DNA of 64,000 nt, taken from the NCBI GenBank assembly GCA_035275065.1, contig DATENM010000023.1:71215-135214 (forward strand), written 5' to 3'. The DNA is from Blastocatellia bacterium. GTDB lineage: Bacteria; Acidobacteriota; Blastocatellia; UBA7656. A program made the position numbers and the translations under genes. Below the pieces are notes generated by a model that worked only from the letters and a program-made list of their open reading frames with translations, ran no database searches and was not told where the DNA came from. Below are positions 5,718 through 26,571 of this stretch, piece by piece; positions within the stretch are counted from its first letter, which is position 1; each line of letters begins with the position of its first letter.

Positions 5718-5725
5718 GACCGTTT

Positions 5726-9800: not shown

Positions 9801-9819
9801 ACTGGAAGGAGTTACGGAT

Positions 9820-11712
9820 ATGAGCACCATGACGATGGCGCCGCAAACGGGCGGCCACCGCTGCAACTGCGGATGTTCCGACTGTATGGGTGAGTGCTGC
9901 GAGTTGGAGTATCTGGTGCAGCCGCGGTTCTTTTGTGGTCAGCTGTTGACGGACCAGGATCTCAACGCCCTGCTTGAATGGGTGAAAGGCAAAACGGCGC
10001 TCGCGCGCTACCGTGACGGCTGGGGAGTGGCCTGCGGACTTGATGTGCATTGCAGCGCGGGGCCGGGCAAGGAAGGGTTCGTGTCGGTGACTCCGGGATA
10101 TGCGATAGACTGCTGTGGCAACGACATCATCGTTCGCGAAGAGGCCGAGATAGACCTGTCGAAATACTGCCTTGTCGATGAAGGCCCTTGCAGGGACCGG
10201 GCTCCGATGTCCGCGCAAAGATCGGCAGCGCAATCGGGAACAACGCCCGGCACTCCGGGGCCGAATCTTAGTTTCGGCGGATGGGAGATTCAACAAAGCG
10301 AGGTCCAGGCGGTTGACCTTTTCATCGGTTACGCTGAGACCGCAAGCGACGCGCGAAACGCCCTTGCCAAAAGAGCCTGCGACGCCGTCGAAGTATGCGA
10401 ATACACGCGGACGCACGAGGGATATCATCTCTACGCGAAGAAGGCCGAACACTGCGACCATTCCGCTGAACGACGCGCGCTCGATTGGGAAGAAGAGTAC
10501 GGAAGAAAGCTCAAAGAACTCTTCAATGATCTTCAAGCCATCTCCACCATTGGCAATGCAAAGCAGAGGGTTGAGAGGTTGAGCCAGTGGCTCACGAGCC
10601 ACGCGCTCCACAGCTTCAGCTTCATCCGAGAATGGCTGTGCGAACTTCAAAGACTGAACGAACCGACGGCCGGCTGGTTCGAGAAGATGATCTTCTGGTT
10701 GGTGCAGGACTGGCGCAGCCATTACCTCGGGTGTGAATGTTACGGCTGCGGCCCCGACACGGGCGTGCATCTGGCGAGGGTATGGCTTTGGCGGCGAAAG
10801 GACGAGCGCGGCAGGGCTTACTGCAAGGTAATATATATCAATCCCTATCCGCCGTTCCGCCGCCCGCTTCAGAGGGAATGCTGGCCCGGCAGGCCCGGTT
10901 ATTTAAACGTCGCGCGCTTCATCTGGCAGCCTACCGACTACGTCGTAGGAGAGTTGAGCAGTCTTGGCTTTGGCAGTATTTCGACGGCGCCGTTTACATA
11001 TGGAAACCTCGAAGGGTTGCGCACGAAGTTTGCCGATGATCATCTGTTCGTGCCGCGCGGGGATGGCACGAGAGCCCAAAGATTGATCATCTATTCATAC
11101 CAGGACATCTGCCAGCAGAGCCGCGTGGTGCGTTTCGGGGTCGAAACGGCGCCCATCAGAACAGATGTAAACGTGAACGCTGCATTGACCAAAGAAGATG
11201 TGAAGCCGGTGAATCAAACAACCACAGGCACAGCCGCAAGCTCAGGCTCTACACCAACCACAGCCAACGCGGAGGATGCAAAGCCGGCTACCGGGCCGGG
11301 CTTAGAGCCGCCCGCTTCACCGACTACGCCCCTTGCTGATCCGACAGCGGGACCGCCGGTAAACTCAAACGGTCCGGCCTTAATTGCAAATAACAGCCCG
11401 GCCGCTGAGATAGTCATAGCGCCGGATGTCCCAATCACGCCAGCCGTTGCAAATCCGGTTGGCAGGACGGCAATTGACCCGGACACCCTTCCGCCAACCC
11501 ACCCCCTGCTTGAGATTCAGCAAGTGAAGGGTATCGGGCCCGTTTACGCGATGCGCCTCGAAGAGGCTGGCATTATGAACCTGCGAGACCTGTCCAAGAG
11601 CAATCCGGCCACAGTGAAGCAGGCGCTGGCCGGCGGCCCGCCGAATCGCCCGGCCGAAGATATTGTCCAGGAAGCCGCAGAGCGGATCAGAAAGTTGAAG
11701 GAAGGAACTTAA
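9820..11712 (+). CDS. Paralog 2 of four: shared N-terminal domain, Cys-rich N-terminus, Pro/Thr-rich linker and a C-terminal HhH-like motif
   Basis: 630 aa, starting MSTMTMAPQ after a GGAAGGAG RBS. It has a CNCGCSDCMGECC cluster and the shared domain (PRFFCGQLLTDQDL...YRDGWGVACGLDV...VTPGYAIDCCGNDIIV). A P/T/A-rich stretch follows. Near the C-terminus is LLEIQQVKGIGPVYAMRLEEAGIMNLRDL. Confidence 0.55.
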   Translation: MSTMTMAPQTGGHRCNCGCSDCMGECCELEYLVQPRFFCGQLLTDQDLNALLEWVKGKTALARYRDGWGVACGLDVHCSAGPGKEGFVSVTPGYAIDCCGNDIIVREEAEIDLSKYCLVDEGPCRDRAPMSAQRSAAQSGTTPGTPGPNLSFGGWEIQQSEVQAVDLFIGYAETASDARNALAKRACDAVEVCEYTRTHEGYHLYAKKAEHCDHSAERRALDWEEEYGRKLKELFNDLQAISTIGNAKQRVERLSQWLTSHALHSFSFIREWLCELQRLNEPTAGWFEKMIFWLVQDWRSHYLGCECYGCGPDTGVHLARVWLWRRKDERGRAYCKVIYINPYPPFRRPLQRECWPGRPGYLNVARFIWQPTDYVVGELSSLGFGSISTAPFTYGNLEGLRTKFADDHLFVPRGDGTRAQRLIIYSYQDICQQSRVVRFGVETAPIRTDVNVNAALTKEDVKPVNQTTTGTAASSGSTPTTANAEDAKPATGPGLEPPASPTTPLADPTAGPPVNSNGPALIANNSPAAEIVIAPDVPITPAVANPVGRTAIDPDTLPPTHPLLEIQQVKGIGPVYAMRLEEAGIMNLRDLSKSNPATVKQALAGGPPNRPAEDIVQEAAERIRKLKEGT

Positions 11713-11724
11713 CCTCCGGTAATC

Positions 11725-14244
11725 GTGATGGAAAGCAAGCGCGTCTATTATGTTGAAAGACAGCGGCTCACCGCCGCGGATCTTCAGTCCGAGCAGGAAT
11801 ACCTGAACGGGTTGGACCTGCGCCACAACCTCAACCAACACATGCCGGGCATCATTCGCGGTCTCCAAATCCGACTCGCCTCTGGCCAGTTCCAGGTTGA
11901 GCCCGGCATCGCGATTGATTCGTTCGGCCACGAGCTTTTGCTTCAACAGGCAGAGCCCCTATCGCTTAATGAAGGCGCCGAGTGCGTTGATACCTGGCTC
12001 ATCTACTGCCGCGAGCAGTCGCGGCTGCGTAAGCCCGGCCGCGCCCCATGCTCAGAGAATACTTTCGAGCGGTGGCGCGAGGCCCCACGCGTACTCGTTA
12101 CACCTGCTCACAAAGACAATGATCCAGAGTTGCCGGCAGAGGGTGCGGTTTTCCTGGGCAGGATCAACTGCGGGGACCGACGAGACATCGCCTATACGGG
12201 GTTGCGCGGCATAGGAGTCGCTGACCCCGGCGTGCGCGCGCTGATGCAGGTCGGCCCGCGTACGGATCGCGACCCTTATGGCTTTGTGTTGAGAGTTGCC
12301 GATGAGTCAGGCAACCTCGCTAAAAGAATCGCGATGGACCGGCGCGGCAATAATTACTTGTTCGGCATGGTGCAGTTACTCGATTGCCAACGGACGCTCG
12401 TTGTGCCATTGCTTCAGAATACGCTGCGCATGATGGTCAAGGCCAGTAAGCCTGGAGAATCTGGAAAGCAGATTCAGGTAATGATAAGGGAGACACAACA
12501 AGGGAATGAGATTAATCTGACATTGATTGACGAAAGCGGTACTCCGCAGCCCGAAGTGCTAACTGTCACGGCCGGCAGACCGCCCAAAGACATAGTAGAG
12601 GAGTTAAACAAGAAATCGGCACTGGCGACGTTCATCCTTGTCAACAAAGATACTGAACCCGGTGATGAGAATGTCCAGTTGCTGAGTGTGCAAGACGATG
12701 TCCACGCCATTCTGACCAGCGCCAGGGCAATGTTAGAGCTCGCCGACTGGTCGAAAGAGGCTCCGGCAGAAATCATACGGCGCGGGTGCTATGATCCATT
12801 GCCCAACGAGAGCTTAACTGATGGGGACGAGCCGAATGGTCTATCTTTTCGTCCTGTATCGAAGCCACCCAAAGGCACACCGCGGCCGAGAATCTACAGC
12901 GTAACAGTGCAATCCGGCGACCGCACTATAGAACGGCTGCGCCTTGATCTTGGCGAAAAGAAGGAAAACGATACCACCGTGCGGCTGTCGATAGGCGCGC
13001 CACCTCAGGACGATACGCCCTCCGGCATGTGGCTGTCGGTCAGCGGCAATTGCCTGGTTTCTCTCAACCCCAAGAAGGACCCAAAGGACGAGGACGAAGA
13101 AACCCTTCCCGCTAGAATCGAGGTAACTGGCTCGATTGAGCAGTCGCCTATAAAGCCCGACCCCACGAATCCACTCTTTCGAGATCTGCTCGTCGCCGCA
13201 TGGTTAGCCGGATTGCGTAGCTCGATTCAGGCTTCGACGACTATTAACGTTACCTTCGAGCAAGTCCCCCAGTTGATCGAAACCAAAAAGCCATGGGGCT
13301 ACACCGTGCGCCTGACCAACAACGAGAAAAAAGAGATCACCGCTGACAAGCTGCTTGAGACCATACCCGTTTCTAAGAAAGCGCCGATACGAAGCCTGGG
13401 GACGCAAGTCTCAATCCCTCCCAGCAGCAGCACCACCATCTCTGTGAGTCACGAGAAGGATGAAATCCCGGCGGGATTTATGGACATCGAAATCATGGCC
13501 AGCGGAAAGATCGGAAACTTCCCCTGGTGGAAATCCAACGAGAAGAAACATATCCCCGTCCTGGAAACGCCGGTGATCGATACCTCGGATGTCCCCGATT
13601 CGGTGCCGCCTTCGGCAACCTGGAGCCATGAATTCACTATCAGGAACACTGCTACGCTGCCCCTGACATTGAAGGAAGTGATCGTTACCGAAGATGCGAC
13701 CGTCCGCAATCTGTTGCCTATGCCGACCGAGATATTACCTGGGGGTGAGAGAGTTGTCGGGCCGGTCCCGCATCCAATCGAGGTAACGTCAGACCTGAGA
13801 ATCGCCTTATCCATGAAATACCAGTGGCAGAACGGCCCGGAAGATACGCTCTCGCTGGATGAGCCGAAAATAGTAAAAGTAGAACAACAACTCCAGTTTG
13901 TTGAGTTCGAGACCCCGGGCGAAATCGAAGTAGAAAGGGACTGGGCGTATGGGTTAAAGCTGAAGAACAAGAGTGCGATGCCGTTGACCGAAATCTCGCT
14001 CAAGCACAGGCTCATAAGCGAAAACCTTCCCGTAATGCCGTTTGTAGCCATACCCGATGTGCCGACAACTCTGGACCCGAACGAGTCCACGCTTTCGTTA
14101 CATATTGCCGGCGTCAAAGCTCCGGTTTCGACCCAGGACACGACAGTCCGGGTGGAGATCGAGGCGCAATACGAACGGGGCGGAAGGGCCTGGCTTTTGA
14201 AGCCGGTTTTCTCAGATGAGATCGAAGTCACCGATGGAAGTTAA
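11725..14244 (+). CDS. Paralog 3 of four: shared N-terminal domain with a long beta-rich C-terminal region
   Basis: 839 aa. Shared domain: RQRLTAADLQSEQEYLNGL..HN.......RGLQI....FQVEPGIAIDSFGHELLL. The remainder is unique. Confidence 0.55.
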   Translation: MMESKRVYYVERQRLTAADLQSEQEYLNGLDLRHNLNQHMPGIIRGLQIRLASGQFQVEPGIAIDSFGHELLLQQAEPLSLNEGAECVDTWLIYCREQSRLRKPGRAPCSENTFERWREAPRVLVTPAHKDNDPELPAEGAVFLGRINCGDRRDIAYTGLRGIGVADPGVRALMQVGPRTDRDPYGFVLRVADESGNLAKRIAMDRRGNNYLFGMVQLLDCQRTLVVPLLQNTLRMMVKASKPGESGKQIQVMIRETQQGNEINLTLIDESGTPQPEVLTVTAGRPPKDIVEELNKKSALATFILVNKDTEPGDENVQLLSVQDDVHAILTSARAMLELADWSKEAPAEIIRRGCYDPLPNESLTDGDEPNGLSFRPVSKPPKGTPRPRIYSVTVQSGDRTIERLRLDLGEKKENDTTVRLSIGAPPQDDTPSGMWLSVSGNCLVSLNPKKDPKDEDEETLPARIEVTGSIEQSPIKPDPTNPLFRDLLVAAWLAGLRSSIQASTTINVTFEQVPQLIETKKPWGYTVRLTNNEKKEITADKLLETIPVSKKAPIRSLGTQVSIPPSSSTTISVSHEKDEIPAGFMDIEIMASGKIGNFPWWKSNEKKHIPVLETPVIDTSDVPDSVPPSATWSHEFTIRNTATLPLTLKEVIVTEDATVRNLLPMPTEILPGGERVVGPVPHPIEVTSDLRIALSMKYQWQNGPEDTLSLDEPKIVKVEQQLQFVEFETPGEIEVERDWAYGLKLKNKSAMPLTEISLKHRLISENLPVMPFVAIPDVPTTLDPNESTLSLHIAGVKAPVSTQDTTVRVEIEAQYERGGRAWLLKPVFSDEIEVTDGS

Positions 14245-14271
14245 CCCGAGTCGGAAGGAGGTCCGAAATTT

Positions 14272-15525
14272 ATGACGACCGTGATTGTCCCGCGAGTGCA
14301 TTTTTTTGACAAACAGTTTTTGCGGGTGGACGAATTCAGAGATGAGCAGTTATACCAGCTTGCTGCCAGGCGTCGTCATAACGTAGCCCATCATTCCTGG
14401 GGCATCGTTCTGGGCCTGGAGATCGCGCAGGAAGATGGGGCGGTGATCGTTCGCCCCGGCATGGCTATTGATGGCTACGGGCGCGAGCTGGTGCTGCCCG
14501 ACAAGGAGTACCTTGCGGAGGGAGCTTTTGATGATCTAGGCGCAGACCGGCTCGATGTCTGGCTCGTCTATTCCCGCCGCGATGGGGAGGCTGCGCCCGA
14601 AGGATATGGTGGCTGCGGACCTGCGGGTGCGCGCGACGCTTATCGATCAGATGAGGTTCCACGGGTCATTGTCGAGAGGCCCGTTTCAAATACTGTTGAT
14701 GCGCGGCGTCCGCCGGGCGTGCAGGAGAGTGTGCTGAGCTCGAAAGTGCCCCTGATCTCTGACGATGATAATGACAGGTGGAGGGTCTATCTCGGCCGTA
14801 TCATTCGCCTTCCCGACGGCACGATTATGATCGATTCCGCGCAGCGGTCTTATGTCGGACTGGTAGGCGAGGTGATAGATCATCCGGCCAATGGTGCGCG
14901 CCTGGAGATCGGCAAACAATCGAGCAACAACGACAAGCGCAATATAGGTGAGGTTACATACGAATATGAGAAAGGCGAAGACGCTCAGCGGAAACAGTCG
15001 CGGCGCTTCGCTATATTCGTCCCTGAAGCTGACGTGTCGGGGTCGGCTGAACAGCAAGTGAAAATATCGCCTCGCTTCGACATTCTCCAAAGCGGAGTAA
15101 TGCGTATCCGCGGCAGAACTATAATCAACGGCAACCTACAGATCACCGATGGGGCCGTTCAGTTTAACGAGCCGGCCAGCTTTAGCCCGGAGAACGCCCC
15201 GCAGAAGCCTTCAATTTACCGGATAACATCCACAGCCGGCGGGGGCGACCAGTTACGAATAGACCTCGGCTCAGAAAACACTATCGACCGTGAGTTCGTC
15301 ATCGGGTTTTCTAATGAGGAAGGTGAGTTTGTCACTTGCCTCAAGCTAGAGCTGAAGGACAATGATCCAAATAAACTGACGCCACTCGTCACGATTAACG
15401 GAGACCTCATGTTGAATGGCGAGGTGGTAGGAGGCAATTTAGTTCCGCGCGCCTTGAGTCAGGAAGCCTTCAACGCCATCCTGGCAAGCTTCCAGGCGGG
15501 GGTCGCCGCCAGCAATAACGTATAG
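14272..15525 (+). CDS. Paralog 4 of four: shared N-terminal domain
   Basis: 417 aa. Shared domain: KQFLRVDEFRDEQLYQL...HNVAHHSWGIVLGLEI...VIVRPGMAIDGYGRELVL. The C-terminus is unique. Confidence 0.55.
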   Translation: MTTVIVPRVHFFDKQFLRVDEFRDEQLYQLAARRRHNVAHHSWGIVLGLEIAQEDGAVIVRPGMAIDGYGRELVLPDKEYLAEGAFDDLGADRLDVWLVYSRRDGEAAPEGYGGCGPAGARDAYRSDEVPRVIVERPVSNTVDARRPPGVQESVLSSKVPLISDDDNDRWRVYLGRIIRLPDGTIMIDSAQRSYVGLVGEVIDHPANGARLEIGKQSSNNDKRNIGEVTYEYEKGEDAQRKQSRRFAIFVPEADVSGSAEQQVKISPRFDILQSGVMRIRGRTIINGNLQITDGAVQFNEPASFSPENAPQKPSIYRITSTAGGGDQLRIDLGSENTIDREFVIGFSNEEGEFVTCLKLELKDNDPNKLTPLVTINGDLMLNGEVVGGNLVPRALSQEAFNAILASFQAGVAASNNV

Positions 15526-15545: not shown

Positions 15546-17564
15546 ATGGAACCGCGCATTGGACATTGGCACTGCCGCTACAGGCTAATAGGCGCGCGCC
15601 AGGAGGCTGCGCTTGCGGTCGAACGCCTTGAGCGAACGGTGCGGCCGCGCGTGTCCGCGGCTTATGCCGACGCCCTCGCCCACGCCTTCGAAAACGATCC
15701 GGCGGTCTATTGTCTGCGCCGCCTCAACGTGCGGCTTGTGCTCGACGGCGCAATGGCCGAAACCGAGGCGAACCTCGCACGTAGATGGGCCGACCGCTTA
15801 GGGTCTGCCGTGGTAACGAGCATTGCGCGTGACGGCGACCATAGCGACAACCTCGTTCGGTTCATGGATGAGCCTGATTATGTGGCGCACTTCCTCCTCG
15901 ACCTGTTGAATGATATGGCATGGCAGCGCTGGTATTACGGCGCGTTTTCAAAGCTCCGTGGTCGTCCGAAAAAAGAGGCAGTGCTGTTCTTATTGATGGA
16001 GCACCGAGAGCATCTTTCGGCAATCCTCCGGCGATTGGCGATCCTCGGCTGCCTCAGCCGAGTCCTCGCGCTGATTGACGAACCTGCCGCGCGCGCTCTT
16101 TGGTCCGAAGCTGGGGAGACTCGCGCCGAGCTCCACAACGCAGATGGGCATCGCATTTTCGTTCGCAGCGCGATTCACATACTCCGCCTGCTCGGCGTTT
16201 GGCCCACCTCAGCGCCTTCTGAGTCAGCCGTTCTTGAAGAGTACCTGAAGAACCGTCCATTGATGCCGGACTGGACGGACCGTCGCTCGCTTGCGGCAGC
16301 AGTGCTTAACGTAATACGCCACGCAACTGACCGCGCATACGTGTCGGGCTTGAACTCCGAAACCGCCGAGAAGCTCCCGGAAATCGGCGAACAAATCTCG
16401 TCGGAATTCGACTGGCTCGATGTTGAATGGCTGTGCAACGCGCTGTTTGCGATTCTGGCTAAAACCTTGCCCGAACTACGGCAGTCCACTTTGCCATCTC
16501 GCAATCCGGCAGCCACCCCCCTGCACCGCCAGATTGTCGAGCGCATCCGCGACCTGTTGCGGGCGGGCAAAGTCAGGCTCAATCTAAATGAGGCGGACAC
16601 GGCACTGAACGCTATCAGGCTCTATGCAGCGCTGGCGGCTGCCGACCCTGAGCTTGCAAGCCGGGCCGCCGCGCGAGCCGTTATCGATCACCTGTTGATA
16701 TGCGCCAGGTCGTTTGCGGAAGCTTCCGGCCCCCACACAATCCTGGCTGCGATGCGAATGGGCGGCGGCGCGCCCTCGTTCGCAATACTCCCTCGCCGCG
16801 CACAAGACGCACTTAACACGGCTGCAAGTTATGGCCCCGCCGCTGTAGAAGCTCTGGAAGAGATCATCGCGTCAAGAGTGGCTGGAGGCACAGAGGCTTT
16901 CACAAAGCGGTTTCAAACCGAGTGTGCGGGACTTTTTTTGGCGGCGCGAGCGATCATTGATGCGCGCATTACGCAGGTGGCCACGGCTTGCGGGGCGGGG
17001 CCGGTCTCATCTGTTTTGCTTGCCATCGGTATCGTATGGATGGGACCGCGCGCGCTTCGCGATACGATTACTGACGAGGGCCTCGCCTTCTGGTGCGGCC
17101 TTGCTCCTGAGGAGCATTGCGCCACAGAGATGCTCGCAGCCCTTGACGTTGAGGGTTGCCACCGACTTCTTGTGAAGGTGCGTGAGCTGTTTGAAGACCG
17201 CGCCGCGCTCTACTCGTCTCTTAAAGAGATTGCTGCGCCAGAATCCTGTCTGGCCGATTTGATCGCAGACCTGCCTCCCGGCGTGATCGTCAACGAATCG
17301 CTCGCGCTCACAGCGATCTACGCGATCAGACTTTGGGCGCAGTGGCTGCCCGGCCTGTCCGGTTCGAGCCCGCTTTACCTGCTGCGTAATATGTTGCGGC
17401 GAGCGGGCGCGCTGCAAATCAGCGATCATTGCGTAGATGTCCGTCTTCAGCCCGGCCCGTTCGACGTTGTGCTTGAGATGGCCTCCTACACGAAGGAACT
17501 CTCCGGGGTCACGTGGCTCGGAGGCCGGAAGGTTATCTTCCACATCGAGCGGAGCTCCGAATGA
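15546..17564 (+). CDS. Ala/Leu-rich helical protein in the Afp14 position; candidate tail-length (tape-measure-like) protein
   Basis: 672 aa with a predominantly helical composition, directly upstream of the AAA+ ATPase and overlapping its start. The assignment is by position and composition only. Confidence 0.35.
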   Translation: MEPRIGHWHCRYRLIGARQEAALAVERLERTVRPRVSAAYADALAHAFENDPAVYCLRRLNVRLVLDGAMAETEANLARRWADRLGSAVVTSIARDGDHSDNLVRFMDEPDYVAHFLLDLLNDMAWQRWYYGAFSKLRGRPKKEAVLFLLMEHREHLSAILRRLAILGCLSRVLALIDEPAARALWSEAGETRAELHNADGHRIFVRSAIHILRLLGVWPTSAPSESAVLEEYLKNRPLMPDWTDRRSLAAAVLNVIRHATDRAYVSGLNSETAEKLPEIGEQISSEFDWLDVEWLCNALFAILAKTLPELRQSTLPSRNPAATPLHRQIVERIRDLLRAGKVRLNLNEADTALNAIRLYAALAAADPELASRAAARAVIDHLLICARSFAEASGPHTILAAMRMGGGAPSFAILPRRAQDALNTAASYGPAAVEALEEIIASRVAGGTEAFTKRFQTECAGLFLAARAIIDARITQVATACGAGPVSSVLLAIGIVWMGPRALRDTITDEGLAFWCGLAPEEHCATEMLAALDVEGCHRLLVKVRELFEDRAALYSSLKEIAAPESCLADLIADLPPGVIVNESLALTAIYAIRLWAQWLPGLSGSSPLYLLRNMLRRAGALQISDHCVDVRLQPGPFDVVLEMASYTKELSGVTWLGGRKVIFHIERSSE

Positions 17565-19822
17565 AGTCCCACATGCCTCCAGAAGTCCTGCTGAATCGCG
17601 GCCCATACAGGCGCAGCGCGGAACACTTGCGCGACGAACTTGCACGCGTAGACCTGCTTGTGCGCGCGCAGGTAGTGCGCTGGCGTTTGACCATCGGACA
17701 GACAAAGGCGGAAGAGATGTGGGGCATGGTTTATGTGACCGACGCCGAGATTGACCGGTATATGAGTTCTCCTATCGCGCCGCCCGACCGACTGCCCGAA
17801 TCGTTGCTGCACGCCCTCAAGCCGTTCTGGGAGGCTGAAGCTTTAGCAGGCCGACAAATCCGCGAGAACGTGCAGGCCACGGCTTCTGAAGTCGATCTGA
17901 GGGTGAATTCACTCTCCACAGCATTTCAGCTAACCGACCTTGAGCGAGACCTCGTGCTGGTTTGTTTGCTGGCCGAACTCGACTTCCGCTACCGCCGCAT
18001 GCTCGGTTATCTCCAAGATGATGTTTCCCACAAAAAGCCGCCAGTTGAGCTGCTGCTCCAGATAATGCGCCCGCGGGCCGAATCGCTTGAAGAGGCCCGT
18101 GCGGCATTTGAGCCCGAAGGCACGCTTCTGTCAAAACGGCTTCTTGTCTTGAGCGGCGAAGATGACAATCGCGCAACGCGGTCTGTTCGGCTGGATGAAA
18201 GAATCGCGTCATACCTTCTCGGCTCGGACGGCCTGGACGCTCGCCTATCGAATGTCGTGGTGAGAAGCGCGGAGGCGGTGAAATGGGATGAGCTACTGTT
18301 TGATGATGCGCTCATCGCCCACCTGCGCCACCTGGCGGATTACGTGAGTCTCGGCAAAGCCATCCTGTTTTTTCACGGCCTTCGCGGCAGCGGTCGAGAA
18401 AAGGCTGCGCACGCCATCTGCACTCAAAACGGTATGCAGCTTCTGCGCGTGGACGTGGCGGCGGCCCTTCAGGAACAGACGCGATGGGAGGTTATCGTCG
18501 ATCTCGCGTTTCGAGAAGCGCGGCTCGCCGGGGCCGCCATTTACTGGGCAGATGTCGATCTTCTGCCGCAGGATGAGCAGGCGTCATATCGCGTGGATTA
18601 CCTGCGGCGCGCCGCCGGCAACTTTCAGGGGCTAACGATTCTGTCCGCAACTGTGGCGGGAGAAAGTTACGCGCAGTTTCGCACCTGCCTGCCTCTGCAT
18701 GTCGATTTCCCTGTCCCTCACTTCGAACGCCGCCGCAAGATATGGTTGGCCTATCTGCCGCCCGAAGATGAGCTGCCGAACAGAAATGAAATCGCGGAAA
18801 CGCTTGCCGGGGCGTTTCAGCTCAACGAAGGGCAGGTACGCGATTCGGTCGTCTCTGCGCGAGAGCTTGCGCGGCGGCGCGATGTCTTCAATCCGAAGGT
18901 TACGAGCGAAGACCTCTACGACGCCTGCCGTAAACAGGCCGGTCGTCGCTTGCTCGGATTCGCGCGGCGGATCGAGCCCTCGCGCAAGCTCTCGCTCGAC
19001 GACGTGATCCTGGCCGAGACTAATAAACGGCAGCTTAAGGAGCTATTGAACCGCATACGTCTGCGCAGCCGCCTCTATTCCGAGATGAAATTCGGGCGAA
19101 GCCTCGCCGAGCGCAAGGGCCTGCTGGTTTTGTTCGCCGGCTCGTCCGGCACCGGCAAGACCATGTCGGCCGAGCTGCTTGCCAGCGAAGAGGGGGTTGA
19201 CCTGTATAAGGTTGACCTTTCCGCCATCGTGAGCAAGTGGGTGGGAGAGACTGAAAAGAACCTCAACCGAGTATTTGCGGAAGCTGAGGACTCAAACGCG
19301 CTGCTGTTCTTTGACGAATGCGACGCCCTGTTCGGGCAGCGCGGCGAGATCAGAGAGGCGAAAGACCGGTGGGCCAACCTCGAAGTGAATTACCTTTTAC
19401 AGCGCGTGGAGGAGTATTCAGGGGTAGTCATTATGGCTACGAATCTGAGGCAGAATATCGATGATGCTTTCCTGCGTCGCATTCAAGTCATCATAGAGTT
19501 CCCTTCTCCGGACTCGGAATTACGCTTAAAGATATGGGAGCGGAGTCTCCCGCCGCCGCCACATTCAGACATCAGTGAAGACGATTTGCGAAACGTGGCT
19601 AACCGGTTTGCAATCACTGGTGGCAACATACGCAACATCGTGATCGATGCAGCCTTCCGCGCGCTGGCAGACCACCGTGCGGGGATTACTCTCCGCGACC
19701 TTGTGGATTCAATCGCGCGGGAATACCAGAAGATCGGCAAGCCTATCACTCAGGGAGATTTCGGCAAAGAGTTCTTCGGATGGGTTGTCGCTGATATCCT
19801 CTCTCCTCCCGCTGAAGGGTGA
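17561..19822 (+). CDS. AAA+ ATPase (Afp15 / CDC48-like eCIS assembly ATPase)
   Basis: Walker A is GSSGTGKT and Walker B is LLFFDECD, with a long N-terminal domain. The start MKSHMPPE overlaps the upstream stop. The ORF track offers an alternative start at 17513. Confidence 0.8.
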   Translation: MKSHMPPEVLLNRGPYRRSAEHLRDELARVDLLVRAQVVRWRLTIGQTKAEEMWGMVYVTDAEIDRYMSSPIAPPDRLPESLLHALKPFWEAEALAGRQIRENVQATASEVDLRVNSLSTAFQLTDLERDLVLVCLLAELDFRYRRMLGYLQDDVSHKKPPVELLLQIMRPRAESLEEARAAFEPEGTLLSKRLLVLSGEDDNRATRSVRLDERIASYLLGSDGLDARLSNVVVRSAEAVKWDELLFDDALIAHLRHLADYVSLGKAILFFHGLRGSGREKAAHAICTQNGMQLLRVDVAAALQEQTRWEVIVDLAFREARLAGAAIYWADVDLLPQDEQASYRVDYLRRAAGNFQGLTILSATVAGESYAQFRTCLPLHVDFPVPHFERRRKIWLAYLPPEDELPNRNEIAETLAGAFQLNEGQVRDSVVSARELARRRDVFNPKVTSEDLYDACRKQAGRRLLGFARRIEPSRKLSLDDVILAETNKRQLKELLNRIRLRSRLYSEMKFGRSLAERKGLLVLFAGSSGTGKTMSAELLASEEGVDLYKVDLSAIVSKWVGETEKNLNRVFAEAEDSNALLFFDECDALFGQRGEIREAKDRWANLEVNYLLQRVEEYSGVVIMATNLRQNIDDAFLRRIQVIIEFPSPDSELRLKIWERSLPPPPHSDISEDDLRNVANRFAITGGNIRNIVIDAAFRALADHRAGITLRDLVDSIAREYQKIGKPITQGDFGKEFFGWVVADILSPPAEG

Positions 19823-19823
19823 T

Positions 19824-22800
19824 ATGAGTGCCACTAAGGACCTGTCTTTAGACGTCACCCCGCAGCGCGACCGCCGCCCGCGCGAAGCATCCACCGGTAT
19901 GGATTCAAGCATTGGCGCTGGTCAGTCATTATTCGCTCCTGCGGCAGAGCGCGAAGGTGTCCTGCCTCCGTCTAACGGTGTTCCGTCGGCAGCCCGCGCT
20001 GCCAACCTCATGACCGCTGCGGAAACGTTGCCCGATGTCGCTGCTCGCGCACAGATGAGCATCGCTCTCCAACGCAATGTCGGCAACGCACGCATGGGGG
20101 CCATGTTCGGAGCGATGGCCGGACCTAAGGCTTCTCCGCCTGCACCGCCGCCAATTGCTTCGCCTGCGCAGGAGTCGAATCGCCCATCGCCCATACCTTC
20201 AGCAGTACCGGCACAGCCGGTCAGTCCCGCTGTGCCCCCGACCCAAGTGGAACCTGCCAGGCCCACAGCTCTGCCACCAGCAAAGACCGCGCCTGTGCCG
20301 ACTCTGCTCGCGCCGATCTCACCCGCGCCTACATCGCCCGCCGAGGCTCAGACGGTTCCATTCGCAGCGACACCGGCCAAATCGCAAGAGCCGCCCGTGT
20401 CGGCCAAAAAGGCCGCGACTGGAACTGCCGCGACTGAAAAGGCACCCGAGCCTGGCTCAGAAGAATCAGCCAAATCTGTTGAGGCCGCGCAGCCGGCGAA
20501 GAAAGGCTCGACCGCGCGCGGCGCCAAGCCTGGGGAAAAGGCCGAAGCGGGCAAAGCGCAGACGGCTTCCCCCGAAGGCGCGGCAGAAGAAGGCGGATCG
20601 GGCGCAGGGCGCGGCAAAGGCGGACGTTCGGTTCAGCTTAAGATGCCTGAGCCGCCTTCGGACCTGACGCCAGCCGCTCGCCAGCGTGTTCAAAAAGTGA
20701 AGGCATCGGCTGGCCAGGCGGCAGCCTCGCACGCGGCGTTGCCGTCGGCCCCGGAATCGGTGAAGCAGGCGCGCACCGCCGTGACCGAGCCGCAGCAGGA
20801 AGCCAACGCCCACGCGGGCGCAGACCTGGTTGACGCACTAGGACAACGGCCAAAACCGAGCCCGCAGATCGAGGCAATCTGCGCAGAGATCCGACTGGTG
20901 ATCGAGGAGAAGCGCCCACCTGACGAAAAATCGCTGGTCAAGGCTGACCCGGAACAGATGGGACAGGAGGCTGGCGATAAGGTGAAGGGCAATGTGCAGG
21001 GGGACGTGAAGCGCGTCGATCAGAGCTACGACTCGCTTGAGAAGACGCCCACAGGTACGCCGCAGCAGGGCCAGCCGCTTGAAGCTCTGCCCGCCAGTGC
21101 GCCTGTTCCAGCTATGAATGCGTCCCATGCAGCGCCCGACTCAGTGCCAGCGCAGAACGTCTCGCTTAATCAAGACTCCGAAGATGCCAAAGCGCGCATG
21201 GGCGAGGCAGGCATGAACAAAGCGCCTGCCAAACTGGTCCAGACCGGTCCCGTTGCCGAAGCCCGCGCCGCGCAGGGCGAGCTTGAGAAAACCGCCGCCG
21301 AGGACCCGGCCAAGGTGCTGGCCGCGCAGCAGGCATCATTGAGCAAGGCCAGCGCTGATATGGCGGCATTGCAACAACAGGCGCTCAACGCGCTCGCCAC
21401 CTCGCGCAGCAAGACAGTCTCCGGCACGACCGGCCAGCAGAAGCAGATGGTTGGGTCTGAAGAGCAGAAACGTACACAGGTGAGCGCGCAGGCACAGGCT
21501 ATCTTTACGGGTGCTCAAACTCGCGTCAACGGCCTGCTCCAGACGCTCCCGCAAACCGCCATGCAGAAGTGGGACGCGGGGATCACCATCGCCAAACGTC
21601 AGTTCAAACAAGAACTGAAGACGGTCGAGGAGTGGATCGAAAAGCGCCATGAGAGTATCTTAGTCAGTTTTGCGGACCGGCTCTTTGGTCTGCCTCCGTG
21701 GGTCACCGCCAAATACAACATCGCCGAGAAAAACTTCGGCAACGACGTGTGCAACCTTGCGCGCGAGATTTCTATTGAAGTCAACGGCATCATCATGACG
21801 TGCGAGGCGATTATCGCCGATGCACGGACAAAGATCGCAAATCTCTTTGCTTCGCTGCCCGAAAGCCTGCAAGCGTGGGCCGCTGGCGAGCAAGCAAAGC
21901 TTGGCGCGCAGCTCGATACGCTGCAAAATCACGCGCACGAAGTCCGCGACAACTTTGACCGCGAACTCGTAGGCCGCGCCGCGCAGAGCGTGCAGGAAGT
22001 CCGCGAGGAAATCCACGCGCTGCGTGAGAAGGCGAAGGGGTTCCTCGGCAGGCTCGCCGACGCGATTGATCGTTTCGCCCAAGACCCCGCGAAGTTCATC
22101 CTCGAAGGGTTGCTCGACCTGCTCGGCATCCCGCCCGCCTCGTTCTGGGCGGTGGTGGCGAAGATACAGAAGGTCATCGGCGACATAGCGGACGATCCTG
22201 AGAAGTTCGCCAACAATCTCATGGCCGCCGTCGGCAAGGGGTTCACACAGTTCTTCGACAACATCCTTGACCACCTGCTGCACGGCTTCCTCGATTGGCT
22301 GACGGGCGGGCTGGCGGCGGCCGGCGTCACGCTCCCGAAGGACCTGTCGCTCAAGAGCATCATCACATTCGTCCTGGAGTTGATGGGCATTACGTGGCCG
22401 CGCATTCGAAAACTTCTTGCGAAACACATTGGCGAAGAGAACGTCGCGCTGCTTGAAAAGGCCTATTCCATCGTCGCCAACCTGGTCGCGCTGGGGCCTG
22501 AGGGCATCTTCGAGATGATCAAGGAGAAGTTGAACCCGCAGGAGATTCTCGATCAGATCATCAAGGCGGCAGTAGATTACATGATGAGCGCCATCATCAA
22601 GGCCGTGAGCGCGCGCATCCTCCTGCTGTTCAACCCGGTGGGCGCAATCCTTCAGGCGATTGAGGCAATCTACAAAGTTCTCAAGTGGATCTTCACAAAC
22701 GCGGCGCGCATATTCCGATTGATCGAAACCATCGTGAACGGGATCGCGGACATCATCGCGGGCAACATCGGCGGCATGGCCAACGCTGTCGAGAAAGCAC

Positions 22801-24131
22801 TCGCCGGTCTCATCGCGCCGGTGATAGATTTCCTCGCAGACTACCTCGGCTTCGGCGACCTCCCGAATAAGGTGAAGGAGACTATCCTCGGCTTCCAGGC
22901 GTGGATCGAAGGAATACTCGACCAGGTGATCGGCTGGCTTGTAGAGAAGGGCAAAGCTCTGCTTAAGGCCGTCGGGCTGGGTGGCAAGGAGGGCGAGAAA
23001 AAGCCGGACGAAGGAGAAGTCGGTGAGTCGGTCGCATTTACCGCCGGCGGTGAGCAGCACCGGCTCTGGATTGCGGTTAAGGGCGGCAACGCCGTCATCA
23101 TGCTCGCCAGCGGAGCAGCCGCTCTACTTGACTTCTTGAATAGCGAGCGCGTACAGAAGGCCGTCGATAGTGACGACCAGAAGCCTGCGGATAAAAAGAT
23201 CAAAGACAAGGTGCCACGCGCCAGGGAGCTAGCCAACGAGGCCGATGTTGATGCGGAAAAAGTACTGAGTTTCATGTCGGGGCAAAAAGAGGACGAGGCC
23301 ACGCAAGAGAACAAGAAGGTCAAAACCGTGGAACACCAACTGGCGAACCTATTGACCGACATCCTGGGCGCGATCTCGAAGGACGGACTCACTATTTTTG
23401 ATGTTATAGGGAAGCCGATTGACCCGCTGCCCGAACAGCCGAAGCCAGAAGGATATGTATTTGTAATAAGCCATGGGTTTAAAGAATTGCAGCGAGCGGC
23501 GGGTAGGGGTAAGGAAGGTCCAGAACAATACCCTCAGGTCCACGTCGATGAGGTGGGGATAGTAAAGTCAGGTGCGGGAATACTTCGCTATGATTACGAC
23601 CTCGTCAAGAGGTATAATGCTGCGCTTACGAGGGCGAAGCTGGATGGGGACGAAGCGCCGGGCAATCCAGAAATGCCAGTAAACATGCTTGTGAGCGGCG
23701 CTAATAAACCACCGCATTTTAATGAAGGCATCCGTGCTCAGATGGAGCAACTCATTAGGGAGGTCGACGGCGGACAGAATGTTACCGGTGTAGAAGTAAT
23801 GCTTGGCCGCAAGCGAATCGATTACACGATAACAGTTGATAGGGGTGAAGGGGTAGAGAACGCGCTGGTCGAGTATAAACACTGGACCGGTAATTTGAAG
23901 GATGAGCGGCGCGCAGAGTTAGCCGCAAAACTCTTGACGCAATTGACAGCCTATGTCGATCACGCGCGGACCGGGGGTAATGATTATCGACGTCTGATTA
24001 TCGCGTGGCCGGCATTCTCCAGGTTGGACGCTACCAGCCAAGCCGCGTTCAACAATGTGTTTGAAGCTGTAAAGAAGCATAGCGACAGCAAGCCCGCGAA
24101 CGAAAAGGTCACGATTGAGATTAAGAATTGA
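19824..24131 (+). CDS. Large candidate eCIS cargo protein or effector
   Basis: 1435 aa from MSATKDL, with a GAAGGG RBS. It has IALQRNVGNARM near residue 80 and a ~250-aa P/A-rich segment. The C-terminus has ...TVDRGEGVENALVEYKHW (a D-x13-EYK arrangement). The last ~0.7 kb has visibly lower GC. Confidence 0.45.
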   Translation: MSATKDLSLDVTPQRDRRPREASTGMDSSIGAGQSLFAPAAEREGVLPPSNGVPSAARAANLMTAAETLPDVAARAQMSIALQRNVGNARMGAMFGAMAGPKASPPAPPPIASPAQESNRPSPIPSAVPAQPVSPAVPPTQVEPARPTALPPAKTAPVPTLLAPISPAPTSPAEAQTVPFAATPAKSQEPPVSAKKAATGTAATEKAPEPGSEESAKSVEAAQPAKKGSTARGAKPGEKAEAGKAQTASPEGAAEEGGSGAGRGKGGRSVQLKMPEPPSDLTPAARQRVQKVKASAGQAAASHAALPSAPESVKQARTAVTEPQQEANAHAGADLVDALGQRPKPSPQIEAICAEIRLVIEEKRPPDEKSLVKADPEQMGQEAGDKVKGNVQGDVKRVDQSYDSLEKTPTGTPQQGQPLEALPASAPVPAMNASHAAPDSVPAQNVSLNQDSEDAKARMGEAGMNKAPAKLVQTGPVAEARAAQGELEKTAAEDPAKVLAAQQASLSKASADMAALQQQALNALATSRSKTVSGTTGQQKQMVGSEEQKRTQVSAQAQAIFTGAQTRVNGLLQTLPQTAMQKWDAGITIAKRQFKQELKTVEEWIEKRHESILVSFADRLFGLPPWVTAKYNIAEKNFGNDVCNLAREISIEVNGIIMTCEAIIADARTKIANLFASLPESLQAWAAGEQAKLGAQLDTLQNHAHEVRDNFDRELVGRAAQSVQEVREEIHALREKAKGFLGRLADAIDRFAQDPAKFILEGLLDLLGIPPASFWAVVAKIQKVIGDIADDPEKFANNLMAAVGKGFTQFFDNILDHLLHGFLDWLTGGLAAAGVTLPKDLSLKSIITFVLELMGITWPRIRKLLAKHIGEENVALLEKAYSIVANLVALGPEGIFEMIKEKLNPQEILDQIIKAAVDYMMSAIIKAVSARILLLFNPVGAILQAIEAIYKVLKWIFTNAARIFRLIETIVNGIADIIAGNIGGMANAVEKALAGLIAPVIDFLADYLGFGDLPNKVKETILGFQAWIEGILDQVIGWLVEKGKALLKAVGLGGKEGEKKPDEGEVGESVAFTAGGEQHRLWIAVKGGNAVIMLASGAAALLDFLNSERVQKAVDSDDQKPADKKIKDKVPRARELANEADVDAEKVLSFMSGQKEDEATQENKKVKTVEHQLANLLTDILGAISKDGLTIFDVIGKPIDPLPEQPKPEGYVFVISHGFKELQRAAGRGKEGPEQYPQVHVDEVGIVKSGAGILRYDYDLVKRYNAALTRAKLDGDEAPGNPEMPVNMLVSGANKPPHFNEGIRAQMEQLIREVDGGQNVTGVEVMLGRKRIDYTITVDRGEGVENALVEYKHWTGNLKDERRAELAAKLLTQLTAYVDHARTGGNDYRRLIIAWPAFSRLDATSQAAFNNVFEAVKKHSDSKPANEKVTIEIKN

Positions 24132-24140
24132 GTCTGCGAA

Positions 24141-24869
24141 ATGATAGACATGTTAGAGATAGATACACTGATTGGAGGGTCGCTTTATTTTCAGCAACCA
24201 CTTTCATCCAAGGATGGTCTCCGCCTGATTAAGCTCGCAATCGAAGGGCTAGGCCCGTACATGGGTGTGCCATTTAAGGCATACCTTGACCACCAGTCTG
24301 ACATACTTACCAAACAGGACGCAGCCGCATTTGAAGCGAGCGGACAGGCAATTATCTTCAACCATGAGCCACTGGCTCGCGAAATGAATAGATCGACCTT
24401 CTTCCTGACCCACTCTTACCTTGGCACGCATCCGGACGTGAAACAGATTCGCGTATACCCGTCTGTGATTGCCAGTGGGCCGGAACTAGATCGGGTTTGG
24501 GATTTCATGACAGATGTGATGCCACGATTCGTCGAAGCTACTCAACCCGGTCTCGCCATGGCTACAGGCTCGCCCGAAGAGGATGATTATACTGAATACC
24601 TTCCGAACGCTGCGGAGATACATCCGGGAGAACTGCCGCCTTTTTTTACCCCCTGGAACTACATAGGCCCCGATTGCCTGACGCAAGAGCGGCGGCGCTT
24701 TCTCGACCGGCTCCCCGCAACGCGGTCTGAGCCGTTCGGCGAGGGGTGGCTACTACAGGTGGTCAGGAGCCTTTCGCAATGGCCGAGCCCTGAGTTTCTA
24801 GAAAGATTGCGTTCGGCTCCCAACCCACAACCGGTCGGCTACCGCCAGCCCAGAATAGATGAGCAATGA
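24141..24869 (+). CDS. Hypothetical protein downstream of the candidate effector (possible immunity, chaperone or cap protein)
   Basis: 242-aa ORF with lower GC than the structural genes and no recognisable domain. Confidence 0.4.
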   Translation: MIDMLEIDTLIGGSLYFQQPLSSKDGLRLIKLAIEGLGPYMGVPFKAYLDHQSDILTKQDAAAFEASGQAIIFNHEPLAREMNRSTFFLTHSYLGTHPDVKQIRVYPSVIASGPELDRVWDFMTDVMPRFVEATQPGLAMATGSPEEDDYTEYLPNAAEIHPGELPPFFTPWNYIGPDCLTQERRRFLDRLPATRSEPFGEGWLLQVVRSLSQWPSPEFLERLRSAPNPQPVGYRQPRIDEQ

Positions 24870-25201
24870 CGTTGGCGAATTTCAGTCTTTGGACAGACAC
24901 CGCCCGCACGCGGTTCTTCCTTATCCCTGACGACAAGCAATTTCCACTCGGTGACTTCGTGCTGCGCACGCTCACGGGCCGGGAGATGGAGGTTGACCCA
25001 ACCGCTCTGGCTGAGTACGAAATAAGCGAGCAGGAAGCAAAGGGATGGCTCAAGGGCGAATTCGGCAAGATGCTTGACGGCGCGCGGGCAGTAGCAGATC
25101 GGTTCATCGAGAAACTGAGACAGGGGCCGCCAGGGCCGGCCGAAGATAAGAAAACAGAAGATAAGAAAATGACAGACACGAAAGAATCAGGCGACTCGTG
25201 A
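24866..25201 (+). CDS. Small hypothetical protein with an acidic, Lys/Glu-rich C-terminal tail
   Basis: 111-aa ORF that overlaps the previous stop. There is no domain call. Confidence 0.35.
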   Translation: MTLANFSLWTDTARTRFFLIPDDKQFPLGDFVLRTLTGREMEVDPTALAEYEISEQEAKGWLKGEFGKMLDGARAVADRFIEKLRQGPPGPAEDKKTEDKKMTDTKESGDS

Positions 25202-25239: not shown

Positions 25240-26571
25240 TTAGGGCAGGTCGGTGCTGCGCAGAATCTTGTAACGATTCATCTTTCTATAAAGAGTCATC
25301 CTTGACCAGTGGAGCTTGTCGGCAGCGCGCGTCTTGTTCCAGTTCGTTGCGACAAGCGCCTGGATCATAAGCTCTCGCTCGTTGGGGTTGGCAGAGGTTA
25401 TCTCTGATATGTGTTTCTTGACCTGCTCCGGAAGATCGACGATATCTATTATCCTGCCCTGAAGATTGACGAAGATTGCTTCGACCACGTTCTTAAGCTC
25501 CCGGACATTCCCCGGCCAGCTATGCGACATAAGTAAATTCATGGCTTCGCCGGTAAATCCTTCAACGTGCATGCTAAACGATTGGTTCATTGCCTTGACG
25601 TAATAGGTAAGCAGCTTTGGGATGTCTTCGGTGCGATCTTTCAGCGATGGCAGTTGCATGCGAATCACATTCAGGCGGTAGTAGAGGTCCTGGCGGAAGC
25701 GTTTCTGCTCGACCGCTGCATCGAGATCCTGATTAGTGGCCGCAAGGATTCGCACACTCAAAGGCAAGGGCTTGTTGCTTCCCAATCTGTAAATCTCCTT
25801 GCCGTCTAAGGCGCGCAGCAGCTTGGCCTGGACTGAGGAACTGATGTCTCCGATCTCGTCGAAAAAGATCGTCCCCGTATTGGCGAGCGCCAGCTTGCCT
25901 TGGTAAGCGTATTGCGCTCCGGTAAAAGCTCCCTTCTCATGCCCGAAGAGCTCGCTTTCGAGCAACGAATCGGGAATGGCTGCACTGTTCAAGCAGACAA
26001 AAGGCTTGTTGGAGCGGGGGCTGTTTGCGTGAATCAACTCGGCTACGAGCTCTTTGCCCGTGCCCGTTTCGCCCGTAATCAAGACATTGCTTGTCCACTT
26101 GCGCAATTTGTTAATGAGAGCCCGCAAGTCACAAACCGCCGGGCTATTACCGATCAGCCGCTCGCCCCATCGTAATGCGCAACTCTGCTCAATTTTGGCG
26201 ATGGGTTCTCTATCGCCGGAAAGTAACTCCGCGAGGATCGTTATGATCTGTTGATCGGAAAGTGGAGGTTTAAGATAACGATTTACTCCGGCGTTCAGGG
26301 CCTCAATCGCCATCTCCTCGGAACTCTCGGCCACGGCCAATACGATAGGGACTTCCATTTTCAACGCACGGACCTGGCGGACGAATTCGAGCGCTGGCTT
26401 GGCCTTGCCCGGCGGCACGCTGATAATAGCCACGTCGGGTATCAAGGAAGAGAGGAGCTTCAACGCGTCGGCGCAATCCGAGGAATGCAATACCTGAAAG
26501 CCTTGCCGTGAAATCAGGCTTGCTATGACCGGGCGTGCAGATTCAATGACCATGATTTTGGAATCAGTCAT
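25240..26571 (-). CDS. Sigma-54-dependent transcriptional regulator (NtrC family enhancer-binding protein) with an atypical receiver domain
   Basis: Walker A is GETGTGKE and the GAFTGA motif is present, with a C-terminal HTH. The N-terminal receiver-like domain has Ser where the phospho-accepting Asp is expected (PDVAIISVPPG). Confidence 0.85.
   Translation of the reverse strand: MTDSKIMVIESARPVIASLISRQGFQVLHSSDCADALKLLSSLIPDVAIISVPPGKAKPALEFVRQVRALKMEVPIVLAVAESSEEMAIEALNAGVNRYLKPPLSDQQIITILAELLSGDREPIAKIEQSCALRWGERLIGNSPAVCDLRALINKLRKWTSNVLITGETGTGKELVAELIHANSPRSNKPFVCLNSAAIPDSLLESELFGHEKGAFTGAQYAYQGKLALANTGTIFFDEIGDISSSVQAKLLRALDGKEIYRLGSNKPLPLSVRILAATNQDLDAAVEQKRFRQDLYYRLNVIRMQLPSLKDRTEDIPKLLTYYVKAMNQSFSMHVEGFTGEAMNLLMSHSWPGNVRELKNVVEAIFVNLQGRIIDIVDLPEQVKKHISEITSANPNERELMIQALVATNWNKTRAADKLHWSRMTLYRKMNRYKILRSTDLP

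Follow-up and report, generated by a model that had tools for sequence, protein, structure and literature searches.

A DUF4157-less, tape-measure-related protein as the probable nuclease effector of an acidobacterial extracellular contractile injection system

We analysed a 64,000-nucleotide stretch of the genome of a Blastocatellia bacterium (phylum Acidobacteriota; contig DATENM010000023.1, positions 71,215 to 135,214), referred to here as the window. It carries an operon for an extracellular contractile injection system (eCIS), whose genes encode sheath, tube, Cis7, VgrG, PAAR, gp25, baseplate J and P2_I-like proteins, four CIS13-like fibres and an AAA ATPase. The last of these genes is followed by the subject of this study, an open reading frame (ORF) for a protein of 1435 residues. 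A sequence-only reading of the window had proposed that this protein is a toxin loaded as cargo into an eCIS. Family matches of the operon's genes confirmed the eCIS context, and the gene indeed lies where that reading had placed it, with a single nucleotide between the stop codon of the ATPase gene and its ATG. It thus sits directly 3′ of a Cis15-type ATPase gene, in the 3′-terminal part of the operon and only a few genes away from the eCIS core genes, the position by which eCIS-associated toxins (EATs) are recognised. The ORF is the largest of the operon (the runner-up encodes 886 aa), and its product had no sequence match in Pfam, NCBIfam or the PDB. The regions of the protein and the two genes that follow it are listed below.

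19824-24131, + strand: toxin gene (entire ORF with its stop codon), 1435 aa; predicted tape-measure-related polymorphic toxin
19824-20105, + strand: residues 1-94, hydrophilic, disorder-prone N-terminal region; candidate loading or docking signal
20106-20627, + strand: residues 95-268, variable linker rich in proline and alanine (22% Ala, 19.5% Pro; 83% disorder-promoting residues)
20628-23111, + strand: residues 269-1096, conserved family core shared in family alignments
23025-23111, + strand: residues 1068-1096, three-stranded beta module at the end of the core, consensus GExVxFxAxGExHxLW..G..A..MVAS
23112-23408, + strand: residues 1097-1195, linker from core to toxin domain, helical in the model
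23409-24128, + strand: residues 1196-1435, C-terminal toxin domain (CTD), predicted PD-(D/E)xK fold
23733, 23793, 23820, 23871 and 23877: R1304, E1324, D1333, E1350 and K1352, the CTD residues invariant in an alignment of 16 sequences
24141-24869, + strand: d1, predicted cognate immunity protein, 242 aa, with a homologue directly downstream where the CTD type matches
24866-25201, + strand: d2, small conserved accessory ORF, 111 aa, overlapping d1 by ATGA and translationally coupled to it

A large protein database search with the 1435-residue protein returned 57 homologues. All but one share the core; the exception, P0010, aligned over the N-terminus only. Core length is nearly constant across phyla, whereas both ends vary, and alignments of homologues stop within or just before the linker at residues 1097-1195. 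The last 200 residues of the homologues cluster into about 25 unrelated tail types. Among these are known DNase toxin domains, located where the Blastocatellia protein has its CTD: Ntox15 in P0008 (residues 1220-1368 of 1374) and also in P0035, Endonuclea_NS_2 in P0031 (residues 1611-1682 of 1772), and AHH in P0055 (residues 1389-1464 of 1493). A second, profile-based search added members from Gemmatimonadota, Bacteroidota, Myxococcota, Cyanobacteria, Gammaproteobacteria and Streptomyces, which again end in Ntox15, Endonuclea_NS_2 or HNH. The core family spans Acidobacteriota, Proteobacteria, Actinobacteria, Nitrospirota, Bacteroidota, Myxococcota and Cyanobacteria. Judged from the alignments, the family is built as polymorphic toxins are, with a conserved core that is joined to tails of many kinds. 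Homologues P0031, P0035, P0055 and P0063 also carry DUF4157 (eCIS_core) near the N-terminus. The hidden Markov model (HMM) search for this domain that the sequence-only reading had suggested matched some homologues in this way but gave no match in the protein itself. A cryptic DUF4157 was considered and rejected, there being no HExxH in the protein, no HExxHxxQ in the window and no Pfam match.

The gene that follows the toxin gene varies with the toxin's tail. We compared 12 related loci, seven obtained by exact protein look-up and five from genomes. A d1-family gene lies directly 3′ of the toxin gene in all five loci with the same CTD type, namely the window, L003 (43% identity), L004 (26% identity), L013 (HMM E 1.5e-13) and L005 (HMM E 4e-7). 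It does so in none of the six distinct loci with other tails, where the gene after the toxin is unrelated to d1. In L007, an Ntox15 toxin is followed in the d1 slot by the immunity protein Tdi1 (GAD-like 1e-23, Tdi1_C 2e-16). Tdi1 is the known immunity partner of Ntox15/Tde DNases, as in the Tde1-Tdi1 pair of the Agrobacterium type VI secretion system (T6SS). Because its presence co-varies with CTD type, we read d1 as an immunity gene and predict that it encodes the cognate immunity protein of the CTD. Base composition also sets the pair apart: GC content is 0.50-0.52 over positions 23400-24600 (CTD and d1) compared to 0.60 in the core, and GC content at third codon positions (GC3) is 0.55-0.56 in the CTD and d1 compared to 0.75 in the core. 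This drop in GC3 would fit a toxin-immunity cassette that is exchanged horizontally. Taken together, the polymorphic C-terminus, the DNase domains of homologues and the co-varying downstream gene bear out the proposed toxin status, and the prediction that the protein is a toxin is strongly supported.

In contrast to the immunity slot, the gene after it is kept: d2 follows the toxin-immunity pair in all 12 loci, regardless of toxin type. Its N-terminus reads 'LWTDxxRTRFFLIPDD', and it had no family match in Pfam, NCBIfam or PHROG. We regard d2 as a candidate dedicated chaperone or adaptor.

The CTD was modelled with AlphaFold2 at high confidence (predicted local distance difference test, pLDDT, 92; predicted template modelling score, pTM, 0.87). 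In domain numbering, the model has a helix at 102-120, strands at 124-132, 135-144 and 149-156, a helix at 165-186 and a strand at 193-199, the alpha-beta-beta-beta-alpha-beta topology of the restriction-endonuclease (REase) core. In the alignment of 16 CTD sequences, the nearly invariant Q1373, often inside QxxxY, joins the five invariant residues listed above. In the model E1324 lies on beta1, D1333 on beta2, E1350 and K1352 on beta3, and Q1373 on alpha2. The fold matches that extend over more than 100 residues were REase-fold nucleases, including CdiA-CT and TseT toxins, with modest scores. Foldseek gave nothing at E <= 1e-3 for the CTD model; above that value the list consisted mostly of AddB, a Cas4-family protein, EcoO109I, BamHI, MspJI, FokI and HamA. 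Sub-threshold Pfam matches of family members for this domain were to NERD, PDDEXK_9, Tox-REase-9, DpnII and PDDEXK_1.

The sequence-only reading had already named a PD-(D/E)xK-like motif in this domain, in the form D-x13-E-x-K. Its fold assignment is supported by the model and the invariant E, D and ExK, but its motif is not. The stretch it pointed to, TVDRGEGVENALVEYKHW (residues 1337-1354), has a spacing of x10 from D1339 to E1350, and we rejected D1339 as the catalytic aspartate, since its column varies and lies in a gapped segment of the CTD alignment. The invariant aspartate is instead D1333, in RIDYT, which gives D-x16-E-x-K. By itself, the bare pattern D-x(8-20)-[DE]xK carries no weight, because it turned up in 71% of shuffled copies of the CTD. 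The call of a nuclease fold was made on residues invariant across the family and on the predicted fold, and not on the raw motif.

Relatives of the CTD are few. With residues 1196-1435 as the query, exhaustive HMMER searching of 1.84 billion representatives yielded just 22 relatives. The domain was C-terminal in every full-length match, and the remaining matches were short proteins or fragments. Among the 57 homologues, the domain (~240 residues) occurs in three proteins besides P0001, which is identical to the Blastocatellia protein. Some of its carriers combine it with DUF4157 and the core (P0060 and P0063), others with the core without DUF4157 (P0059 and P0072). We conclude from the model and the alignment that the CTD probably represents a divergent REase-fold family beyond the reach of current Pfam and NCBIfam models.

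The core is made up of a partly disordered segment, four long helices (~476-753), hydrophobic tape-measure-like helices (755-1049) and the small beta-sheet module (1068-1096). An AlphaFold2 model of residues 269-1195 was almost entirely helical (pLDDT 74, pTM 0.37), in keeping with the large helical middle region described in the sequence-only reading. Four of its helices run for 52-74 residues; they are followed by hydrophobic helices of lesser length, a sheet of three strands (1070-1094) and the helical linker. Residues 269-475 were mostly disordered or of low confidence in the model, yet are conserved in sequence. Hydropathy peaks at ~1.65 at residues 924-950 and 992-1010.

Several profile comparisons connected this core to phage tape-measure proteins. 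The protein matched the tape-measure family phrog_991 over residues 798-1008 (E 4.6e-5). When thirty family members were scanned singly, they matched nine different tape-measure PHROGs (best E 4.9e-19), all within the shared core. With a profile of the core's hydrophobic part, the top PDB sequence match, at a marginal E of 0.016, was FtbJ of the Listeria monocin, a protein identified as a tape-measure protein (PMC11830787). These matches suggest that the helical core is remotely homologous to phage tape-measure proteins. The caveat in the sequence-only reading, that the helical region might have a tape-measure role, was thus justified, and the label of a tape-measure-related, Tme-like effector suits the protein better than that of a simple globular cargo. 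A kinship of the core with apolipoproteins A-I and E, which a core profile mainly matched among PDB sequences (E ~5e-8), was set aside as shared amphipathic-helix periodicity and composition. The beta module at the end of the core is kept even in the most distant family members, just ahead of the variable part, and may be a pre-toxin or processing module.

At the other end of the protein, the first ~108 residues are common to only a subset of homologues in pairwise alignments. They include a conserved stretch, AARAQMSIALQRNVGNARMG (residues 73-92, positions 20040-20099), within which lies IALQRNVGNARM (residues 80-91, positions 20061-20096), the LQRxxGN motif that had been noticed near residue 80. 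Across the family the motif takes the form [LM]-Q-(Q/R)-x-(V/I)-G-N-(A)-(R)-(M), or LQ(R/Q)xxGN for short. It occurs within the first 200 aa of 32 of the 58 full-length family members, while composition-preserving shuffles led us to expect 0.17 motif-bearing members (maximum 3). It was also said to accompany DUF4157, and it precedes that domain in homologues P0030, P0038 and P0063. A search of the literature library at hand found no paper that uses the motif string.

The N-terminus is otherwise hydrophilic and apparently disordered. Over its first 35 residues Kyte-Doolittle hydropathy averages -0.92, and disorder-promoting residues make up 64-83% of residues 1-268, as described for the hydrophilic, disordered N-terminal loading region of eCIS cargo. 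Published EAT signal features (PMC11297309) were only partly matched, with a net charge of 0 over residues 6-21 and no aromatic residue in the first 8 aa. The linker that follows the motif region is unconserved among homologues; it is as rich in proline and alanine as had been claimed, but by the composition of residues 95-268 it measures ~175 aa rather than ~250 aa.

In L005 we observed a second large ORF (5447-8704, + strand; 1085 aa) that bears an N-terminal LQNRVGN but neither the tape-measure-like core nor any Pfam domain. It ends in a fused d2-like segment, and a 249-aa ORF comes after it. The two ORFs may be a second cargo-immunity pair using the same N-terminal tag. As the motif also occurs in this core-less ORF, we treat it as a separable module.

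The motif-bearing N-terminus depends on the choice of start codon. The frame is open already from 19647. We take ATG 19824 as the start because a GAAGGG Shine-Dalgarno-like site lies just 5′ of it, because it is 1 nt from the ATPase stop codon, and because alignments of P0003, P0007 and P0009 reach residue 1, with similar starts (MSATKD.. / MVANKD..). The public ENA gene call of the identical protein, P0001 (on a 223-kb ENA contig), begins at residue 192 and leaves 574 nt between ATPase and toxin unannotated (window 19824-20399; L001 9427-10000), so the public annotation misses the conserved N-terminus including the motif. In L005, the equivalent N-terminal part has been called as a gene of its own, of 151 aa.

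The remaining genes of the operon and its immediate neighbour are, in order:

1-312: gp19-type tube protein, C-terminus only, as the window begins inside the operon
between the gp19-type tube gene and Cis7: 65-aa ORF
571-1269: Cis7 tube/LysM protein
after Cis7: 374-aa tail protein (phrog_52, E 1.7e-32)
after the 374-aa tail protein, in this order: VgrG-like spike, PAAR, gp25, baseplate J and P2_I-like protein
8379-15525, + strand: four successive ORFs (473, 680, 839 and 417 aa), all opening with a segment of the CIS13 family (E 1e-22 to 0.01)
15546-17564, + strand: 672-aa ORF flanked by the fibre genes and the ATPase gene, in the canonical Cis14 slot of an eCIS
17513-19822, + strand: Cis15-type AAA+ ATPase with winged-helix domain (WHD) and AAA domain (Pfam WHD 1.6e-39, AAA 1.2e-27), directly 5′ of the toxin gene
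25240-26571, - strand: sigma-54-dependent response regulator, convergent, straight after the operon

A Logan contig with an identical P2_I-like protein supplied the operon's upstream part, which reads sheath, tube, sheath, tube, 65-aa ORF and Cis7. In both the window and this contig, no tape-measure gene was present in the slot typical of phages, and the gap between tube and Cis7 holds only the 65-aa ORF. The four CIS13-type ORFs, one of which bears an HHH_5 motif, suggest several alternative or stacked tail-fibre proteins. The 672-aa ORF was examined as a recognisable Cis14 tape-measure protein and found no match in Pfam, NCBIfam, PHROG or the PDB. It is kept beside the ATPase in L003, L006, L007 and L008, and is a candidate for the true tail-length ruler of this eCIS. 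The Cis15-type ATPase is the likely loading factor.

The convergent sigma-54 response regulator, found at the same position in L006 and L007, with a sigma-54 activator near the operon end in L003, may regulate the eCIS operon. In L004 and L005 a GerE/LuxR-type regulator occupies its position. The rest of the window is ordinary chromosome, with genes for a TonB-type outer-membrane protein, glycoside hydrolases of families GH43 and GH3, and an arabinofuranosidase. The closest genomic relatives are metagenome-assembled genomes of Blastocatellia/Pyrinomonadaceae, whose cores are 70-73% identical to this one; Sphingomonas and a further alphaproteobacterium are more distant.

On balance, we think that the 1435-residue protein is probably a DUF4157-less polymorphic nuclease effector of an acidobacterial eCIS, built on a tape-measure-derived scaffold and akin to Tme, the CIS-associated nuclease effector of Streptomyces davawensis. 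We infer both that it is loaded into the tube and that its CTD acts as a nuclease. In this scheme, the Cis15 ATPase, the tube or baseplate, or both would recognise the N-terminal region as the particle assembles. The largely helical, partly unfolded protein would then sit in the tube lumen, like tape-measure proteins, Tme and AlgoCIS cargos, until sheath contraction ejects it. Once outside, the core may interact with the target membrane through its amphipathic and hydrophobic helices, a role already proposed for tape-measure proteins and Tme, after which the C-terminal nuclease would cut the target's nucleic acid, most probably DNA. The d1 protein would shield the producer and its kin, and the toxin-immunity cassette could be swapped by recombination at the linker.

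Several results count against this interpretation. DUF4157 (PF13699), the marker by which eCIS effectors are usually known, is missing not only from the protein but also from its operon and the entire window, and a role of the LQ(R/Q)xxGN motif in loading or docking is something that we infer. The CTD matched no significant sequence model in Pfam, NCBIfam or the PDB. The protein's own tape-measure match is weak (E 4.6e-5), and the hydrophobic helices of the core are only borderline as transmembrane helices or for membrane insertion. Searching 50,697 phage genomes with the core by tblastn returned no match, so that the tape-measure relation is detectable by profiles only. Nor was Foldseek significant for the core model against viral models, a comparison in which floppy helical models perform poorly.

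A serious possibility, although we consider it unlikely, is that the protein is primarily a structural tape measure, a stoichiometric trimer or hexamer that spans the lumen, has its anchor at the spike or the tube initiator and carries the nuclease as an add-on. The relation of the core to tape-measure proteins, its near-constant length across phyla between variable ends, and its four long helices of 52-74 residues would all suit a ruler. So would the gene order, which lacks a tape-measure gene at its place in phages and the Tme cluster, after the tube genes and ahead of Cis7, and the co-purification of Tme with spike and tube-initiator proteins (PMC11126660). The ruler could instead be the conserved 672-aa ORF in the Cis14 slot. 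At 0.229 nm per residue, the value for the 526-aa tape-measure protein Alg14 of AlgoCIS, it would measure ~154 nm, and AlgoCIS has this dedicated protein besides its cargos (bioRxiv 10.64898/2026.05.27.728243). The two explanations overlap, tape-measure proteins being themselves ejected. It is also quite improbable, in our view, that the protein acts in or on the producer population, in release or fragmentation of its own DNA, programmed cell death or development, with d1 restraining it until deployment. Such a role would parallel that of Tme, which shares the overall architecture and whose role is intracellular and developmental (PMC11126660), and that of the related effector Sle1, which also works in the producer (PMC13277306). 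Four CIS13-type fibre proteins are, however, typical of released eCIS that bind a target, and the extreme polymorphism of toxin and immunity genes, which includes the Tde/Tdi pair of T6SS competition, signals conflict between strains (PMC3482391).

We give least credence to the idea that the CTD is not a nuclease toxin at all, but a binding, assembly or unrelated module with an REase-like fold, and d1 its assembly partner. No curated nuclease family rose above threshold, fold-search scores were modest, and the raw sequence motif is expected by chance. Against this very improbable reading stand the invariant E, D and ExK on the expected beta-strands, the bona fide DNase toxins that fill the equivalent position in paralogues, and the co-variation of d1 with the CTD, as expected of an immunity gene. 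We entertain, tentatively and with considerable doubt, a broader account in which the protein is at once ruler and weapon in the tail lumen, LQ(R/Q)xxGN is its address tag, d2 its chaperone or adaptor, and CTD and d1 an uncatalogued pair. One tape-measure-derived scaffold would then carry exchangeable toxin cassettes, the motif would be a cross-phylum, DUF4157-independent tag that docks at the cap, the ATPase or the tube end, and CTD and d1 would form an uncatalogued REase-fold toxin-immunity pair delivered by eCIS.

Our preferred interpretation, that of a DUF4157-less nuclease effector, has several implications. The long 'linker' of many DUF4157-containing eCIS toxins would here be a conserved, tape-measure-related chassis for at least two dozen warheads. 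A DUF4157-free version with clear immunity genes bears on the nature of the eCIS loading signal, and its immunity genes on why antibacterial eCIS toxins often seem to lack them. LQ(R/Q)xxGN is a concrete candidate for a loading signal, testable by mutation, and the conserved break point between core and CTD is a natural point at which payloads could be exchanged when injection systems are engineered. CTD and d1 would add a toxin-immunity family with an REase fold, one that present Pfam and NCBIfam models miss.

How does the protein compare to known systems? Its CTD resembles, at 9-13% identity, the PD-(D/E)xK toxins CdiA-CT EC869 (4g6u), CdiA-CT 1026b (4g6v) and TseT/Tox-REase-5 (7dym, 9oz0). 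Those toxins are delivered by contact-dependent inhibition (CDI) through type V secretion (T5SS) or by T6SS, whereas eCIS delivery is proposed here. In addition, Pfam Tox-REase models were not significant for the CTD, which has an extra N-terminal beta/alpha subdomain of ~100 residues. The Photorhabdus virulence cassette (PVC)-type polymorphic toxins are defined by an N-terminal metallopeptidase (Zhang et al. 2012, PMC3482391). Like our protein, they occur in eCIS neighbourhoods and join a conserved trafficking part at the N-terminus, through a very long 'linker', to a variable C-terminal toxin, and the class includes homologues of our protein. The protein itself lacks the defining metallopeptidase (DUF4157), and its long 'linker' is a conserved tape-measure-related domain. 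In the table of that study, as far as we consulted it, no Tox-REase family entry gives PVC as the delivery route (PMC3482391). Linkers of >1000 aa between DUF4157 and toxin domains were already noted by Geller et al. 2021 (PMC8213781).

The AlgoCIS cargos Cgo1 and Cgo2 likewise combine a disordered N-terminus, a middle module and a C-terminal effector, and are encoded beside an eCIS (PMC8894135). Loading of AlgoCIS cargo needs the disordered N-terminal domain and the ATPase Alg15, while DUF4157 is dispensable, and the N-terminal domains of different systems were reported not to be conserved (bioRxiv 10.64898/2026.05.27.728243). A similar dependence on the Cis15-type ATPase and the N-terminal domain is presumed for the Blastocatellia protein. 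The Cgo proteins differ from it in carrying DUF4157 and lacking the ~830-aa tape-measure-like core, Alg14 being a separate protein. Sle1, from the phage-tail-like particle of Streptomyces lividans, is also a tape-measure-related CIS effector without DUF4157 (PMC13277306). Unlike our protein, it ends in a globular helical domain that is not a nuclease and depends on an adjacent DUF4157 partner, Sle2; no such gene is present in the window.

The closest described entity is Tme (BN159_7576) of Streptomyces davawensis, a CIS-associated, tape-measure-related nuclease effector of 2247 aa (Nagakubo et al. 2024, PMC11126660). In Tme, DUF4157 at the N-terminus is combined with extensive disorder, with transmembrane-like helices that HHpred relates to the tape-measure protein of phage 80alpha, and with a C-terminal EndA-like nuclease to which the phenotype is ascribed (PMC11126660). 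Compared by description, the Blastocatellia protein too is the largest ORF of its CIS cluster, with long disorder, a helical, hydrophobic, tape-measure-like region and a predicted C-terminal nuclease. It differs in its PD-(D/E)xK fold, in place of the EndA/His-Me type, and in its adjacent predicted immunity gene. It also departs from the Tme group in two defining features, because it has no DUF4157 and because its synteny is different: the slot right upstream of the baseplate and tube-initiator genes, where the Tme gene lies, here holds only the 65-aa ORF. The homologue P0031 nonetheless has the exact Tme layout of DUF4157, core and an Endonuclea_NS_2/EndA-like nuclease. The protein is therefore not a new kind of system, but extends a recently described class of effectors.

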